Assembly (NCBI RefSeq): GCF_002105155.1 | Contig: NW_019029001.1 | Coordinates: forward strand, 558,001 to 622,000 | Direction of reading: 5' to 3' | DNA length: 64,000 nucleotides | Source: Lobosporangium transversale | Lineage: Eukaryota | Part shown: piece after piece, positions 5,062-22,719 of the stretch | Position numbering within the stretch: position 1 is the first letter of the stretch | Layout of the letters: the number at the start of each line of letters is the position of its first letter | The notes under the pieces: model-generated | Databases searched by the model: none | What the model was told of the DNA's origin: nothing | The model's input: the letters and a program-made list of their open reading frames with translations, nothing else | Made by a program: the position numbers and the translations under genes

Positions 5062-6737
5062 ATGCGTGAAATTGTCTCACTACATATCGGTCAGGTAAAA
5101 TAACGCTTTATTTGATTGTTTAAAAGAAAAAAGGAAGGAAAGGAAGGAAATTAAGAAAGGCGTTCTCAGACTGACATTTTTATTATTATTATTATTATTA
5201 TTTGTTTTTTTTTCCTTTATAGGCCGGAATTCAGATCGGAAATGCATGCTGGGAACTTTACTGTCTTGAACATGGCATTGCACCTGATGGCACCAGGTAA
5301 TTTAAAAGAAAGGAAAAAAAAAAATCCTGTATTACCACACTGTTGATGGTTACACCAAGAGAAAGAAAGCGCGACTGAGATGAATCTCATCCTTCATTAG
5401 AAACGCGGACGCACCCGAGTCCACCCCTGGTACCTTCTTTGCCGAGGGAAGCAATGGAAAATTTGTCCCACGAACTGGTAAGGTCTTTGCTACTATCTCA
5501 AATCCTAAAAAAAAAGAAAAAGGAAAAACAATGTCTCAACAATTTTTTTTTTTCTTTTTTCTTTTTTCTTTTCATTTTTGGGATAGTCCTTGTGGATCTT
5601 GAAGAGACAGTAGTAGACGAGGTTCGCAATGGCAGGTACAAGAACCTGTTCCATCCAGAATCCCTCATCTCCCATCGTGAGGATGCTTCCAACAACTACG
5701 CTCGTGGCCATTACACTATCGGCAAAGAGTTGATTGATCCCGTCATGGACAGAATTCGTAAAGTTACCGACAACTGTAGTGGTCTTCAGGGTTTCATTCT
5801 TTTCCATTCCTTCGGTGGTGGTACGGGTTCAGGTCTTGGCGCACTCTTACTTGAGCGTCTTGCCCTAGACTATGGTAAAAAAGCTAAACTCGAATTCGCT
5901 GTTTACCCTGCTCCTCGTATTGCCACCTCTGTGGTGGAGCCCTATAACTCCGTCTTGACCACACATGCGACCTTGGATCAAGCAGATTGTACATTCATGG
6001 TCGATAACGAAGCCATCTATGAGATCTGTCGTCAGAAATTGAACGTGGAACGTCCTAATTATACAAACCTCAACCGAATGATTGCCCAGGTGGTCTCTTC
6101 AATCACACTCTCTTTGCGATTCCCTGGCTCCTTGAACGTGGACATGAACGAGTTCCAGACTAATTTGGTGCCCTTCCCCCGTATCCATTTCCCTTTGATC
6201 TCCTATGCCCCCATCCTGTCTAAAGGCAAGGCGCTCCATGAACAATCTTCGGTCAGCGAGATTACTGCAGCTTGTTTTGAACGATCCAGTCAGATGGTCA
6301 ACTGTGATGCTCGTCTGGGCAAATATATGGCTTGCTGTCTCTTGTACCGTGGAGATGTCATTCCCAAGGATGTGACCAGTGCCATCAATACTATCAAGAC
6401 CAAGAGTTCAATTCAGTTTGTAGATTGGTGCCCTACTGGCTTCAAGGTCGGCATTAATCAACAACAGGCAGCAGTTGTCCCTGAAAGTGAAGTCGCTGCT
6501 GCTACCCGATCCGTCTGTATGCTCAGTAACACCACCTCTATCGCCACTGCCTGGACACAATTGGACCGAAAGTTTGATCTCATGTATGCAAAACGTGCTT
6601 TCGTGCACTGGTATGTCGGAGAGGGTATGGAAGAAGGCGAGTTCTCAGAGGCGCGTGAGGATCTCGCTGCTCTGGAGAAGGATTACGCAGAGGTTTCAGG
6701 TGATGGTGCAGCAGAAGTTGAACATGACGAGTACTAA
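5062..6737 (+). CDS. Alpha-tubulin, divergent paralog (4 exons: 5062-5094, 5223-5296, 5401-5477, 5587-6737)
   Basis: Spliced translation [29 protein letters not shown]...; GGGTGSG signature; [31 protein letters not shown]; ends DEY; GT-AG introns keep frame. Confidence 0.96.
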
Positions 6738-6933: not shown

Positions 6934-8960
6934 CTAAGAAAAGTATTGAATTTCAAGGCCTACGGTTTTGACTATAGGATCTTGGGTATGAGGCGAAAAC
7001 ACATGTCCTACAAACCCGAGGCTGAACAATAGCTTATTGAATCGACCTTCCCACATGATGGCTAAACCAGATTGCACGCCTAATCGAGCCTTGATCACTC
7101 CAATGACAGGCTGTTTTTCCTTCGTCTCAGTTGTTGCTACTGTAGCGGGCAGATCGGGCATACCCACAGTCTTCGGGAATGGGATATCATCTTTCTCTTG
7201 CGCAGCAGCAACAACAACCGCTGTGGACGATTTCTTGCTTTCACGAATCCACCATTCAAATCCTGCGGTCAGCTCACTATCATAACTGTAGAGATTGAAA
7301 TCAAACCGTGAACAAAGTCCCAAATCTGGATGGACTTGAGCTGCGTAGCTACTGGAGACATGGCCCATGATTGGATTTAATGTTTGAGTAATAGTAATAG
7401 GAACGTAGTTTTGGTGTTGTTCTGGAGCGGTGGATGTTGGGTAATGTAGCGTTGTAGGGTTTTCTGATGATATATCAGCGGGCGCCAGTGGGGGAAGCGT
7501 CCTGTAACGTAACCCTGTTGAAACTATGAGTATTAAAGAAAAAAGGAATGGCAATCAAATTAAATAACGGACAAGAGATGGCTTATTGGCGAATGGCCCA
7601 ATGAAATAAAAACATAGTATTGTATAAATGACATACATCCTCCAAGTTTTTCGGTTGCACTGTAGTAAAGCTCAGCACCAACTGACCAGTACCCTCGGAT
7701 CCTTTCTGATGGTACTATCCATTCCTCGGGCATCTCCTCATCCAAGTACCCCGCACGGCTTGAATCAACCTTACTACTAATATCACTGTTGGGGTCCCTT
7801 GAAAGGTCTGATGTCGGTATTACAGTTGATTTAGATAATGGTGATGATGATCTCGATGTGGAACTAGTAGCTAGCGTAGAATCCTCAGACTGCTGTTCAG
7901 GTTTAACAGAGCTACTGTCCTGATTTTCTAGTAATACCTTTTCTATGCATTCTTCCTGCTGTAGCTGCCGGTGTCGACGAAGGCGGCTCTCCTGAAGCAT
8001 GCTTTCATAAGAGTCATCAAAATCCTTGCCAAAGTTATACAACCCGCGAATGCCGATCAATCCATCATCCGTTGTAAATGACATTTCTGCACAATATTTG
8101 CCCTTATCGTACTGATACTGTGCTGAAAGCTATATGTACATGTTTATATATAAGTGATAGGATCGAGTCAACAACTCCCATACGTCGCTTCGCCTACTCA
8201 GTCCTGCATTTTTTTTTTTTTTTTTTTTTTTTGCGATACAAATATGTTTTATGGGTGATAATGATACCTTACATGAGATGCGCTCCTGGATGCTGGATCA
8301 CTGATTCCTGAAATGACATACTGTCTATGTTTTGAAATGCGCCGACTATACAATGCCTCCAATCTTGCGTTCGCCAAATTAATCCGTCCACAAAGCAAAT
8401 AGTCTGTAATAAAGAATAAAAAGAACTATTAAAAAAAAAAAAAAAAAAAAATCCATGAAATCTTTCCTGAATTAATAAAGGATCATTTTTTACCTTTCCG
8501 TTTCTTCCCATCCTGGTCAAGCTCTGTCCATTGATCTGCTTCGCGGATGGAGTGATCCAAGCAGATAATCCGGAATCGGTCAACTAAATGTCGAAATCGA
8601 ACTGAAGCAGAGTCGTCGATTGGCAATGCCCTGGAAGTAAACAGATAGCCCAGTGAACCCTCCAGGATCGGAAGCGCATTCATTGTAGTGGTGGTTTTGA
8701 ACACAGTACTAGGAAGTTTTGACAGACGTAATGACAATCCCTGTGGTGCTTGGAAATCCAATAATGCTATAAAATGGAAAACATGATAATAAAAAAAAGT
8801 TAGGATAGCGCAGCGTACTTGTAATGTTACTTGGCAGTTTTCTTTTTCTTTTTCCTTCTTTACCTCGCGTGGTTGCACAAAGATGAGAGTATTGATTATC
8901 TTCGTTCCAGCCAGAGGCACGATAGTACCGCCGGAGACAGTACTCCATAAAGTCGTACAT
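6934..8960 (-). CDS. MDM10: Mitochondrial distribution and morphology protein 10 (ERMES/SAM beta-barrel), multi-exon
   Basis: N-term MYDFMEYCLRRYYRASGWNEDNQYSHL, LEGSLGYLFTS, TDDGLIGIRGLYNFG, WSVGAELYYS, STGLRYRTLP, TLNPIMGHVSSSYA, LCSRFDFNLYSYDS, C-term GLEIQYFS match Mdm10. Confidence 0.92.
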
Positions 8961-9269
8961 TGTGTGCGAAGCCAGTTCTGGGCTGTAAAATCCTTATCAA
9001 CTGAAAGCGAGGGATTTATTTAATTGTTTCTATTGACACGTATCTACTGCTGAGAATAACGTTCTTTGTATTGAGAGACTATGTGTAGTGTGGTATATAA
9101 TCAAAACTAGTAATGATGTTGGAGCTAGATTGAATTAAGAGTGGAGACGTGTGGATGCGAATATGATCAATCGATCAGTTTTGTGATCGGAAACTAAGAC
9201 AGCATGAAGGCGAGAGCAGCACAATCTCGGCCCAATTACGTCACCGGCCCAAAAATTAATTTAAACTTT

Positions 9270-10680
9270 CTAATATGATATTAGACGCCGATATTCGACA
9301 AACATTTCCATGCTGGTCACCACATTGTTGAAGTGAGTTGTAAGCTCAGGATCATGAACTATGTTGTCCGGATCTTCCGTAGTGTCCAAAAGCCCTTCGA
9401 GGGTTTCTTGAAAATCATTGGGCTTGACATTCTCTTGATCTGGCCCCATAGTGTCCTCACCACTTTCATGATCCGGATCTGTTATCGGCGATGAAGAAAC
9501 TTCTTGAAGAATCGTTCTCACAACTGTGCGGCTAGGAAGCTCGACAGGGATCTCCCGCAGGATTGGTTGTTCTATGTCCAAAGGCTTTGGATGAATATAA
9601 TCTAAGTCCAATTCATCTTCCTCAAAACCACTTTCGTCTAAGAAATCAGATTCAGAGCGAGATATAAAGATATCCTTATAATCTTCATGCTTTAAGGCCT
9701 TTTCGATGGCTTCCATAACTGATAGGGATGGTTCTTCGCTTCCGTACGTTTCAATATAGTTAAGAACCGCAAAATCATCTTGCTTGGAAATGAACTCACT
9801 GTCGCCTCTGTACTTGGTTATGAGTTCTCTCTTTAAGCGGTCAATATGACCTTTTTTGTTTGTTTCGACGCCAAGACTCAACAGCCTCTGCTTGTGGTTG
9901 TCTGGAATGACGGGGACCTTGCCGAAGTCCTTGCGGATACATTCAGTAGTAATCGTGTCCTAGGCTTTGAAGAGAAATGGCCAGAGTAACCTATTGATGT
10001 TTTCGTCTCGCTCGATGTAGCGCGCAGCCATTTCAAGCATGAGCCGACTGTAGTGAGCCTTGAAACAACGAATGACTCCAGCACCCATTGGCTGTGTAAG
10101 TGATGCAGTGTTTGGTGGAAGACGCACAATGGTAATATTGGTGAGACCGACGCATTCGCAGCCTTTATTACCCGGTGCGCTGCCAATCAGCAGGGTAATC
10201 TCCCGTCCCTGCTGTCTATTTCATCGTCAAACTCTTGGAGCTACTCTCATAGCCCACTTTCAAAGGATGAGAGGGCTTCATTTGGCAGGAACCCGAAGAG
10301 TTGTTACAAAACAAAATGGATACTCGAACCACGCGCACAATCTTGCGGCCATGGACAGGCTCGGTAGCAAGGGTCTTATCTGCCATGGCATTGAAAAAGA
10401 GACTGATTTCGTCACAGTTATAAATGTTCTCGGAGTCAAATCGAGTGAGCTCATTCTGAATTTCCTGAATCCGGCCTTGCCGTTTCGAGAGGTCAACAGA
10501 ACCACTTTCTCCATGTGTAACAAATCCTTCGATCCCCGTCCGTAACTTGAACTTGTCTAGCCAACCGCGGGAAAAGTCGAGGGGTTCAGGGCGTAGCCCT
10601 GAGTGGTAGTACTCCTTGATGATGATCCATATCCCGGCCGCAGTCCCTTGCAGACGGGCAGCAGTGACATTAATTTCCAT
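9270..10680 (-). mobile_element. Degenerate pogo/Tigger-type (CENP-B HTH + DDE_1) transposase relic
   Basis: FSRGWLDKFKLRTGI (HTH), IYNCDEISLFF (first Asp), and in a shifted frame ITLLIGSAPGN and NITIVRLPPNTASLTQPMGAGVIRCFKAHYS; frameshifts; no clear TIRs. Confidence 0.85.
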
Positions 10681-16759: not shown

Positions 16760-17274
16760 TTAGTTTTTTATTTACTTTTACAGGAATTTGAGAGATGGGC
16801 GTTAAATGAAGAGGAACTGAATGAAAATAATGTGAAAGGGGTCAATTGCGCGTTCGAGCTTGGTGTCGTGGTGGAGGAAAGAGGAGACAGCCAACATCTC
16901 CATAGTTTAAAATCTGTCAAACTTAAGGGTCAGTTGATCAGTAGCCAATTCCTCACGTCATTGAAAAAGGTGATGCCGCTTTATTGATTGATATTCATTC
17001 AGCAATAACAACAAAAACAGCGCTGGACCATCAAGTTTTACAAATGAATATAACCTTGACCCAAAAACAAAGAAGCCTGCTGATTTATTATTACTTTTTA
17101 CAGCTTGTTGAACACCCCTCACTGCCATTGTATGAATTACATTTTTCAGATCTGCCACTGGGACTTGTATACCCTTCATTGTACATACACAGCCTCCTTT
17201 ACCCCTGATTTGGACGGACTTAGCTCTACGTACACATATCAAAAACCTTGCAGAGCACCAGCATTGAGTATTGG

Positions 17275-18606
17275 TAGACATTAACGGATGATCGATGACT
17301 CAGGGCCCCGGGGATCTTGATCACCAGCCTCCTTAAAACCGTGGGACACAGAAGACCTGGCAGAGACAAGGCGGAGATCAGCCCAACGGGGCGCCAGTCC
17401 ATGAGTATCATGTCTCCAGGAGGCGCGAAGGTTCATCTTAGGAGGACTAACCATCGAGGCCTTGATGCCACGACATACTTGCAAGAATATGTTCTTCGCG
17501 ATGGGTACAAACGGATGGACTCCGACTACAACACTCAGGTTACAAGATGAAAGAGCTTTTGGCAGTACGCTTTAGGAGACTTTGGAAAGAAGCGATACCA
17601 TTACCTCTGACTCAACTGTAGATGGCACAAGCTATTTTCTCACAGAAATACAAAATGTAGTGAAAACGAAGGAAGATGCCTCACAGCTCTGGGGATGTGA
17701 GGCCAAATATATCAAGGTACTTAGCTTGGATCTAGGCAAACGTATATAGTTGGCGCATATGCCATTCTCCCGGAGACGAGCTCTGGCCCTGCTGATGCTG
17801 TCTGACAAGTCAGTTCACTCGCCACTGCATTCTACCTCCTTACTGCTGCTCTTCCTACTGCTGCAGCTCAGTCCTCAGCAACCACCACCGCTACATCGTT
17901 AGTATCGTCTTCATCGTCGATCCAAGTGCCTGCACCCAAGGCTTATTGTGATCTGGTAGTTAAGGCAAAGGCGGTTTATTAATCCACGCTAAAATCCTGC
18001 TGATGGCTGCAGCAACAAAACCGCGCAGTGCCAGAAGGAGCCAACCGACCTGTTGAGGATATCGAGATTAACATGTCTGCTCTTCGTGGCAATATACGGT
18101 CTTTGTGAGCTACACTGGGTATCTGAAGGACCGTGAGGAGCAACTCCAGCAGTTTTAAGGAAGAACCTTCAAGGAGTACTAATGGGACTGCCAAAGAGTT
18201 AGAATTGAAGGGTTCGCGGCGACCCCCGACCAGCTTCTTCAGATGATTGGAGGCAGTATTGGACAGAAGTGACAGCTAGACAACCATATAGTCATTACCA
18301 TAAAGCTAGGCCACTTCGCCTCTCAAAACCAACTTTCCGGCCCCAGGGGACATTTTTGGTGTACTTTATTACAGAGTAGGTATTCTTGCTCAAGCGATCC
18401 CGAGGTTTGTTTTATATGCAACAGGTTGCTGATATTTATTAAAGCTTCCTGGACTCAGGTTTGTGCACTAGGATATCTGTCTTGGGAGTGAATGAGTATC
18501 ACATTTCTAAAAAGTTTCGTGGGTGTAAGAACTTTGTAGGGAAGATTATGACTGTCCAACGTGTCACACGCGTCTTCATCGAGATGTTCTTGCGGCTGAG
18601 AACTGA
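17275..18606 (+). pseudogene. Decayed Fanzor/TnpB-like RuvC nuclease gene (C-terminal half) with probable intron
   Basis: Across frameshifts/stops: YVLR/WVQTDGLRLQ...KIKVLSLDLGK-like RuvC-I (IKVLSLDLGK, Asp codon 17729), LVVKAKAVY*STLK, LLQMIGGSIG, ALGY/LGVNEYHISKKFRGC (Glu 18494), CPTCHTRLHRDVLAAEN (Asp 18583). Confidence 0.8.
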
Positions 18607-18966
18607 TCCCGTGAAAGAGATCTAGTGAAATTGACAATTGTGTCTATAAGAAAAAAGATAGCTGGGCTTCACACTCTGGTTGCGGACTGTAAGAAAGTAC
18701 TTTTCAATATATAAGCATGCTATAAATGGTGAAAATGAAATGAAAGGACTCGACACCGAGCTTCGTCTTGCTGAGTTGCTTTATGGGAGAAGCAGTGACT
18801 TTCACCAGTGATATTATATCATGGTGTAAGATTTTTTTGGATGTGGTGCATCACTACTTAGAAAATCCTCACCGTCGGTGGTTTCCGGTATGGTATACCG
18901 TATATGAAGAATGTACCGGGATATCTTTGTATTAGGATACATCATACCGCTACTTGTAGACCAGTG

Positions 18967-19019
18967 GTGCATCGTACTAGTCAAGTGCATCATACTAGTC
19001 AAGTCCATGCACTGGTCAA
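18967..19019. repeat. Short tandem repeat, ~3 copies of 18-bp unit GTGCATCRTACTAGTCAA
   Basis: Two near-identical copies 18967-19002 and a degenerate third. Confidence 0.75.
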
Positions 19020-20852: not shown

Positions 20853-22719
20853 ATGCGCGAAGTCATCTCTCTCCACGTCGGTCAGGCCGGTATCCAGATC
20901 GGTAACGCCTGCTGGGAACTCTACTGTCTTGAGCACGGCATCGAGCCCGATGGCAACGTGTATGTGTCCTTTTTTAAGTTTTCTCGGTGCTCAAACTTCA
21001 TAAATCCAAATAACAGATTTATTTCCATGAATCCTGTCACCCTGTTGTATGTGGAGAAGATGGAAAAAACTGCTGTTAACTCGGTATTTCTTTTATATGT
21101 AGCGCATCTGACAAGAAGGCTTCTCAGTTTGACGCGTCGTCCAGCACTTTTTTTTCAGAGACCGGTGCTGGCAAGCATGTCCCCCGAGCTAGTAAGTTTT
21201 TTTTTTTTTTTTTTTTTTTTCTGATAATGACGTGCGTGTCCCTGAACAACCGCTGGAGTGGATAAGAGGCAAATTAGATTAAAAAAATGGGACCCACTGT
21301 CTGTACTACGCAAATTGGTGCAGTTATTTCAAGACATTTCAACTCGCTTAATGTAGCTAATCAATCGTATCGATATTATGATGATGAAGGCAAAAGGATA
21401 CAGAGCTGACCATAGTAATATCCTTCCTTTTTAGTCTTTGTTGATCTTGAAGAAACTGTCGTTGATGAGGTCCGCACTGGCACCTACCGCAAGTAAGTGG
21501 TTGCAAATAGGTTCTAGGACTTGTCAGTGAAGGCACCACCTTTTATGACCATTTACTTTTTCAACACGCTTACTCTTATCACTTATTTATTCTATTGTCA
21601 ATTAACCAAAATAGGCTCTTCCACCCTGAGCAGATGATCAGTGGCAAGGAAGATGCTGCCAATAATTACGCTCGTGGTCACTACACCATCGGCAAGGAGC
21701 TTGTTGATTCTGTCCTTGACCGTGTCCGCAAACTTGCTGATGCCTGCACTGGTCTTCAGGGCTTTTTGGTCTTTCATTCATTTGGTGGTGGCACGGGGTC
21801 AGGCTTTGGCGCCTTATTGCTCGAGCGTCTATCCGTAGATTATGGTAAAAAGTCTAAGCTCGAGTTTGCAGTTTACCCTGCTCCTGAAATGGCCACTTCC
21901 GTGGTTGAACCTTACAATTCAATCTTAACTACCCACACCACGCTTGAACATACCGACTGTGCCTTCATGGTTGACAACGAGGCCATCTATGATATTTGCA
22001 AGCGCAACTTGGATGTCTCGCGTCCAACCTATACCCATTTGAACCGCATGATTGCACAGGTTGTCTCATCCATCACCGCTTCGTTGCGCTTTGTTGGCTC
22101 TCTTAACGTTGACTTGACCGAGTTCCAGACCAATTTGGTACCTTACCCTCGTATTCACTTCCCCTTGGTCACCTATGCTCCTATCCTCTCGGCGAAGAAG
22201 GCGTACCACGAGCAGCTCTCTGTCAATGAGATTACTACTGCTTGCTTTGACATCCAGAACCAGATGGTCAAGTGTGATCCACGCCAGGGCAAATACATGG
22301 CTTGCTGCCTTCTCTACCGTGGAGATGTTATCCCTAAGGATGTTAGCGCCGCTATTGCGATTGTCAAGACTAAGAAGACAATCCAATTTGTCGATTGGTG
22401 TCCTACTGGGTTCAAGGTAGGAATTAATGACCAACCTCCTACTGTTTTCCCCGGTGGAGAAGTCGCCAAGGTCCAGCGTGCTGTCTGCATGCTCTCTAAT
22501 ACTACTGCTATTGGCGAGGCATGGTCTCGCCTTGATCACAAGTTTGATTTGATGTATGCCAAGCGTGCTTTTGTGCATTGGTATGTCGGCGAAGGTATGG
22601 AGGAAGGAGAGTTCTCGGAAGCCCGTGAAGACCTTGCTGCTTTAGAGAAGGATTATGAAGAAGTTGCCTACGAGTCCGCTGATAATAACGTAGGCGAGGA
22701 GCTTAATGATGAGTATTAA
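20853..22719 (+). CDS. Alpha-tubulin, more canonical paralog (4 exons: 20853-20959, 21103-21191, 21435-21492, 21615-22719)
   Basis: [41 protein letters not shown]...[37 protein letters not shown]; ends DEY. Confidence 0.97.

Follow-up and report, generated by a model that had tools for sequence, protein, structure and literature searches.

The closest described systems are the Fanzor1 nucleases, including SpuFz1 (PDB 8GKH/9CEU), GtFz1, and PpFz1 (Saito 2023, PMC10432273; Xu 2024, PMC11423790), which usually measure 600-700 aa (Xu 2024). As described in Yoon 2023, Fanzor1 has a TDG motif in the WED domain and a RuvC D-E-D triad in which the Glu lies six residues before the first zinc-finger Cys, while at RuvC-I almost only DPG occurs. 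In the Mucorales, Fanzor1 genes have been described in MuDR-type TIR elements (ROr-4, PBl-3, MCi-4), which have 9-bp TSDs and no transposase (Bao and Jurka 2013, PMC3627910). A further point of comparison is the FEN1/EXO1/XPG (Rad2) group of 5′ nucleases, which the full-length relatives of our locus resemble over their N-terminal ~330 aa in profile, fold, and acidic motifs.

The locus lies in the window, i.e., the whole 64,000-nucleotide stretch of Lobosporangium transversale DNA that we analyzed. It belongs to a family that is like known Fanzor1 in its TDG motif, its HRD RuvC-III motif, its fold, and its split RuvC domain, whose Glu precedes the zinc finger by six residues. The family differs from the solved Fanzor1s, to which it is only 10-15% identical in Foldseek alignments, in having DLG where DPG is typical; and unlike the intact Fanzor1s, the copy in the window is dead. 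Here, we describe this relic and then focus on its full-length relatives.

The relic aligns with its best relative, P0005, in ten collinear pieces (213/404 residues identical, P0005 residues 35-466). It carries eight frameshifts plus one frame change at a putative intron, eight internal stops, and a premature stop at 18604-18606. Searched against 1.84 billion proteins, a single frame (17499-18365, stops as X) retrieved 101 at E<=0.001, with P0005 again the best match (6e-23). Family profiles match the window in seven collinear stretches at 17299-18609, in profile order, and nowhere else in the window at E<0.1. More general searches returned little: a six-frame Pfam scan gave one weak match, to the Cas12f1-like TNB domain (PF07282, E 0.0065) in the last piece; a word-based search with the relic's 90-aa piece found nothing among 50 candidates; and a PDB sequence search with the same piece yielded chance matches only.

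All remnants are on the + strand. The 5′-most one (17172-17318, frame 3; stops at 17265 and 17289; 21/48 identical to P0005) is likely part of the REC region, and is followed by a remnant ahead of the TDG motif (17299-17505, frame 1; profile E 3e-5; 31/63 identical). The WED segment (17502-17612, frame 3; profile E 4.5e-9) carries the Fanzor1 TDG motif in QTDGLRLQ (17508-17531, Thr 17511), and the RuvC-I segment (17612-17746, frame 2; profile E 3.6e-17; 31/43 identical) carries DLG in IKVLSLDLGK (17711-17740), with the catalytic Asp codon at 17729. Then come RuvC strands, an S/T/A-rich linker that is variable among relatives as well, and the next helix (17734-18102, frame 1; stops at 17803, 17980, and 18001; LVVKAKAVY at 17953). 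A helical and RuvC segment (18102-18375, frame 3 and then frame 2; profile E 4e-24; stops at 18156, 18180, and 18270) includes FKEY*WDCQR (18168), LLQMIGGSIG (18234), and IVITIKLG (18288). It ends at an inferred GT-AG spliceosomal intron of 83 nt (18376-18458); an intron occupies the same position in five relatives (L001, L002, L003, L005, and L009), and the sequencing runs examined contained no spliced RNA across the relic's own. Beyond the intron, the RuvC-II segment (18459-18546) contains LGVNEYHISKKFRGC (18482-18526) with the relocated catalytic Glu (codon 18494). The last piece (18547-18606; 13/17 identical) contains the second CxxC and the RuvC-III HRD in CPTCHTRLHRDVLAAEN (18553-18603, Asp codon 18583), directly before the stop.

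The first-pass annotation, made from the letters of the window, had proposed a dead Fanzor1-like copy at 17275-18606, based on eight motifs and four residue positions (Thr 17511, Asp 17729, Glu 18494, and Asp 18583). On the + strand, we recovered every one of the eight motifs in the order given, and the four positions are correct. The left limit has to be moved, with homology reaching ~17172 (local alignment to P0005/P0006; 0/500 shuffles reached the score). We also confirmed that all three catalytic acidic residues are kept: D17729, E18494, and D18583 align with the family's D/E/D. Of the proposed CxxC..CxxC zinc finger, the relic keeps three of the four Cys, the first Cys of the first pair having become Phe (KKF vs. 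KKC in a relative); in relatives the set is complete, and they score above the PF07282 cut-off. The Glu sits six residues ahead of the first zinc-finger Cys position, in an EYHIS motif that reads EYYTS in relatives. Among 110 family proteins scanned, many of them fragments, the relic's QTDG (17508-17519) corresponds to TDG in 37 and TNG in 11. Its DLG is the common form as well, with 34 DLG and 3 DPG among the 48 relatives with a matching pattern. Since a DLG relative carries a published FZ1 label, DPG is typical, not obligatory, for Fanzor1.

Both ends of the gene are missing. Relatives extend at least 30 residues beyond the position of the relic's stop, and past 18606 we found no significant coding continuation (at best 8/500 shuffles, in one of nine tests). 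By tblastn, neither the N-terminal half with its FEN1-like domain nor a MULE transposase left a trace in the window, the best matches being short and of low complexity (E>=0.005). The family's right-end model has no match beside the relic at 18600-19000 at E<=10; compared with shuffles, the stretch 18604-18720 shows no excess of folding (z +1.05), and that of 18840-18980 is weak (z -1.63). Depth across 17337-18839 is flat and on one contig in three DNA runs, which show no second copy at >=85% identity; more diverged copies may exist, but the first-pass annotation was too hopeful about intact ones in this genome. The first-pass annotation placed the relic between VMA2 and a thioesterase gene. 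The left neighbor encodes an ATP-synthase-type subunit (PF00006), consistent with VMA2; the thioesterase label on the right comes from an HGG motif identified by eye, the unspliced pieces having no Pfam match. In run X5, which is presumed RNA given its spliced joints, both neighbors yielded deep contigs, and the relic at least three pieces of 151 nt at a depth of ~2 (one run, contigs only), an observation to which we give no evidential weight. Altogether, the relic is almost certainly a dead Fanzor1, and we describe it as the C-terminal fragment, truncated at both ends, of a Mortierellaceae-type Fanzor1 gene. It is itself incapable of the cutting and homing discussed below: it is an ordinary fossil, and its value lies in the family behind it.

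The more interesting feature of that family, which the first-pass annotation missed, is the FEN1/EXO1-like N-terminal domain of the full-length relatives together with their MULE-type carrier. Gene models of full-length relatives reach ~1,000-1,300 aa, exceeding the usual Fanzor1 length because of this domain, a predicted FEN1/EXO1/XPG-type nuclease that makes up the first ~330 residues. The family profile matches FEN1, Rad2, EXO1, and XPG structures with the acidic motifs aligned (best E 1.6e-10, archaeal FEN-1), and the structural model of P0046 matches human FEN1 and EXO1 (E 2.4e-9) as well as SpuFz1 (E 6.6e-6). The acidic motifs DG, EAD, DSD, and NDY are kept in P0046, P0107, P0039, and P0072 (TDY in the last). 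Two of 16 proteins scanned pass Pfam cut-offs: P0072 for PF00867 and P0059 for PF12813. From 43 metagenome loci, we checked the 14 with at least 2.6 kb upstream; 11 of these, corresponding to eight distinct elements, encode the FEN core in the same orientation, and L007, L039, and L041 gave no match to it. Several other FZ1 rows in the Saito 2023 table begin, by eye, with the same motifs, so the pairing may span several subclades.

Unlike the FEN1/EXO1/XPG nucleases, this domain is encoded by transposons, where it is predicted to form one protein with a RuvC nuclease, and it is absent from the relic. The predicted fusion is based on public gene models and one open frame, the latter in L003, where no stop interrupts the passage from the FEN tail to the WED/REC region. 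The alternative is that intact relatives are ordinary Fanzor1 homing nucleases, and the FEN1-like sequence belongs to a gene of its own, which is a passenger or assists the MULE transposase, e.g., trimming flaps at strand transfer, rather than the RNA-guided cut. Such an arrangement would explain why stops or a frame change lie in an intron-like stretch between the FEN and RuvC parts in eight of nine loci tested, a break that we read as an intron. It would also fit the long linker between the domains in the structural model (residues 346-436, pLDDT<50), and the absence of 9-bp TSDs (see below), which suggests unusual end processing at insertion. However, L003 is open across the junction, independent public gene models are single proteins, and the domain order is identical in every locus with both the FEN core and the Fanzor part. 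We consider this alternative rather unlikely and prefer the single fused protein.

The relatives' carriers point to a transposon source. A single element, ~7.41 kb long and bounded by a perfect 22-bp TIR, was recovered at four loci (L001, L016, L017, and L018) that are 99% identical and differ in their flanks; the L005 element has a 26-bp TIR. Inside the TIRs of L001 and L005 lies a divergently oriented minus-strand gene with MULE (E 2.6e-4 and 1.2e-3) and SWIM (E 8.9e-7 and 7.2e-3) matches on unspliced pieces of the two elements; SWIM passes the cut-off in L005, and the MULE Pfam scores are below the curated one. A 9-bp TSD was found in none of the four two-ended contigs, three of which have one matching base on either side of the element, and no TAM-like motif directly at the left end is common to three junctions. 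As contigs without the TSD may be chimeric, as may these junctions, we call the elements MULE-like rather than members of MULE. L001 and L005 resemble the Mucorales elements in placing a fungal Fanzor1 in a MuDR-like TIR element, and differ from them in having a MULE/SWIM-type gene, no 9-bp TSD found, and an encoded FEN1-like domain. By analogy with these relatives, the relic probably stems from a Mutator-like DNA transposon; we take this origin from the relatives, since the locus itself retains no end, TIR, transposase, or scaffold. The type of carrier may vary from one subfamily to another, since a different gene on the same strand, with a SWIM-like Cys/His pattern and no Pfam match, lies upstream of the family member in L006 (3-506, +). 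In L022, the gene directly upstream is a host repair gene, not a transposase. In L001, another MULE/SWIM transposase gene (7569-8982, -) has its 3′ end directly at the Fanzor element, and this second element also flanks L016 and L017, on the opposite side.

At the left junctions, GTGACG lies exactly 15 nt before the TIR in L001 (197-217), L016 (149-169), and L017 (189-209), and ACGACG lies at the same distance in L005 (108-128). Three of these four flanks look like a related element's right end, which gives the impression that insertion takes place beside the ends of relatives. Cas12-family nucleases cut ~15 nt from their motif. One reading of this spacing is that the fused protein or the transposase binds the GTGACG-type motif, with integration 15 nt downstream, and so has a role in the choice of insertion site. 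Four contigs with the exact distance, against a background of 2.6e-4 per position, and an identical base on each side of the element in three of four speak for it. On the other side, the L016 and L017 flanks are not independent because both share neighboring MULE sequence, and where a metagenome assembly crosses a repeat of 7.4 kb, the wrong flanks may have been attached. Moreover, the same motif ends elements with no adjoining Fanzor (window 9210-9245 and the L016 flank), so it may be a plain transposase-binding site. Altogether, a role in insertion-site choice seems improbable to us.

The right ends of the relatives' elements suggest a guide RNA. A conserved non-coding stretch follows the stop codon, with a core GGTGACGT motif 76-103 nt past the stop in 12 loci. 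Folded singly, the right ends of 13 of 14 loci reach z<=-1.96 and share one layout, in which a short hairpin precedes a long stem that often carries a UUCG-like loop and has the TIR as its 3′ arm. The latter feature fits the scaffold prediction of Yoon 2023, in which TIRs form part of Fanzor1 scaffolds. The first hairpin has changes on both sides in 10 cells, a count that 0/500 shuffles reached, with relatedness uncontrolled. Its outer pair is G-U in 7/14 loci, so the structure fits a + strand RNA. RNAalifold gave no consensus structure on the gapped right-end alignment, and Rfam had no matches in five loci; the right-end model matches 22 of the 43 loci, 15 of which are its training set. By analogy with other Fanzor1s, the conserved two-hairpin right end is likely the scaffold of an omegaRNA, with the guide supplied by the flank that follows.

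L011 (2360-2460) has two tandem copies of the right-end motif at a distance of 40 nt. Elsewhere in the window, a broken pogo/Tc5-like transposase gene (9210-10680, -; HTH_Tnp_Tc5 E 4e-4) is directly followed by an end motif like the Fanzor right end, i.e., the same core and a TIR-like tail (model E 0.001), and at least two further copies of this end motif occur in the organism's DNA runs.

The assignment of the family to Fanzor1 draws on fold, motif, and published labels. For the structural model of P0005 (mean pLDDT 73.5), the comparison with Fanzor structures that the first-pass annotation had suggested puts SpuFz1 at ranks 1-3 by Foldseek (E 4.4e-8), followed by Cas12f, GtFz1, and PpFz1. 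In a wider fold search, CasPhi, Cas12f, TnpB, and Fanzor2 scored Z 10-13, whereas GtFz1 reached 9.1. The RuvC fold is thus certain, and neither a non-RuvC family nor a misaligned triad was found; with others ranked above GtFz1, the Fanzor1 assignment itself leans on Foldseek, the TDG motif, and the published labels. In Saito 2023, Supplementary Table 1 labels P0046 (KAG0303305.1) as FZ1 (one of five accessions tried), and Table S2 of Yoon 2023 lists P0046 and P0039 (two of six tried). These entries, together with the collinear family matches and SpuFz1 as top match of a relative's model, agree with the annotated Fanzor1-like identity, but they weaken its suggestion of an uncharacterized lineage: the family is catalogued, not new. 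That the relic is instead a set of chance motifs or another RuvC-fold family is highly improbable: the single weak Pfam match of its pieces, the lack of any solved Fanzor1 among sequence-search results, a Fanzor2 zinc-finger stretch as the best sequence match of P0046, and CasPhi and Cas12f above GtFz1 would suit that reading, yet it is already contradicted by 101 relatives with collinear profile matches, SpuFz1 in first place by Foldseek, TDG or TNG in 48 of the 110 proteins scanned (many being fragments), and the FZ1 label.

All eight species-named relatives among ten looked up, and all matches of two further searches, come from genera that we take to belong to the Mortierellaceae. An atlas query returned the family's own 58-member cluster and, at 0.75, two viral DUF8286 clusters, which are leads only. 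In two Jiang 2023 supplements searched, none of the family's genera appear. The literature searched contained no experimental work on the lineage, no paper on Fanzor in Mortierella or Mucoromycota, and none on Mutator transposons in Mortierellaceae. The term "XPG" has no occurrence in the main texts of Saito 2023, Jiang 2023, Xu 2024, PMC13565253, and the ESM atlas preprint, and a search for a pairing of Fanzor with FEN1, XPG, or PIN (subscription papers, Repbase, and one Saito supplement being outside its scope) returned no paper that, judging by title and opening of the abstract, deals with this family. In the literature searched, the anatomy of the family, i.e., FEN1-like domain, MULE-like carrier, and RNA candidate, is undiscussed.

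Taken as a package, we lean toward a relic derived from a Mutator-like transposon that encoded a fusion of a FEN1/EXO1-like nuclease and an RNA-guided RuvC nuclease, with an omegaRNA at its right end and homing by cutting and resection. In the proposed sequence of events, excision of the element leaves an empty site that the RuvC half would cleave; its fusion partner, the 5′ nuclease, would process the broken ends by trimming or resection, so that repair restores the element with the sister or homolog as template. This would extend the restorative-homing model set out in section 6.2 of PMC13565253. A more specific proposal, which we regard as possible but tentative, is that the Mortierellaceae possess a two-nuclease Fanzor, in which the RuvC cutter is joined to an active FEN1/EXO1-type nuclease that resects its own cut and so forces homology-directed repair, carried on recently mobile Mutator-like transposons landing 15 nt from a fixed motif. 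If true, it would amount to a naturally occurring cut-and-resect editor whose guide RNA, of ~100 nt, is predictable. A fusion that is real and active would unite RNA-guided cutting and end resection within a single eukaryotic protein; it bears on what Fanzors do for cut-and-paste transposons and is relevant to repair outcome in genome editing. The L001-type 7.4-kb unit, found four times at 99% identity, provides protein, TIRs, transposase, and predicted scaffold as a directly testable system.

The surroundings of the relic offer some further observations. Short stretches at 17108-17185 and 18918-18965 bracket it and recur elsewhere in the organism's DNA, ~86-94% alike; these are possibly the remains of small mobile elements. 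An 18-nt tandem repeat follows at 18967-19002. Two genes on the + strand, which by eye from their translations we take to be alpha-tubulin-like (5439-6737 and 21595-22719), lie 16 kb apart.
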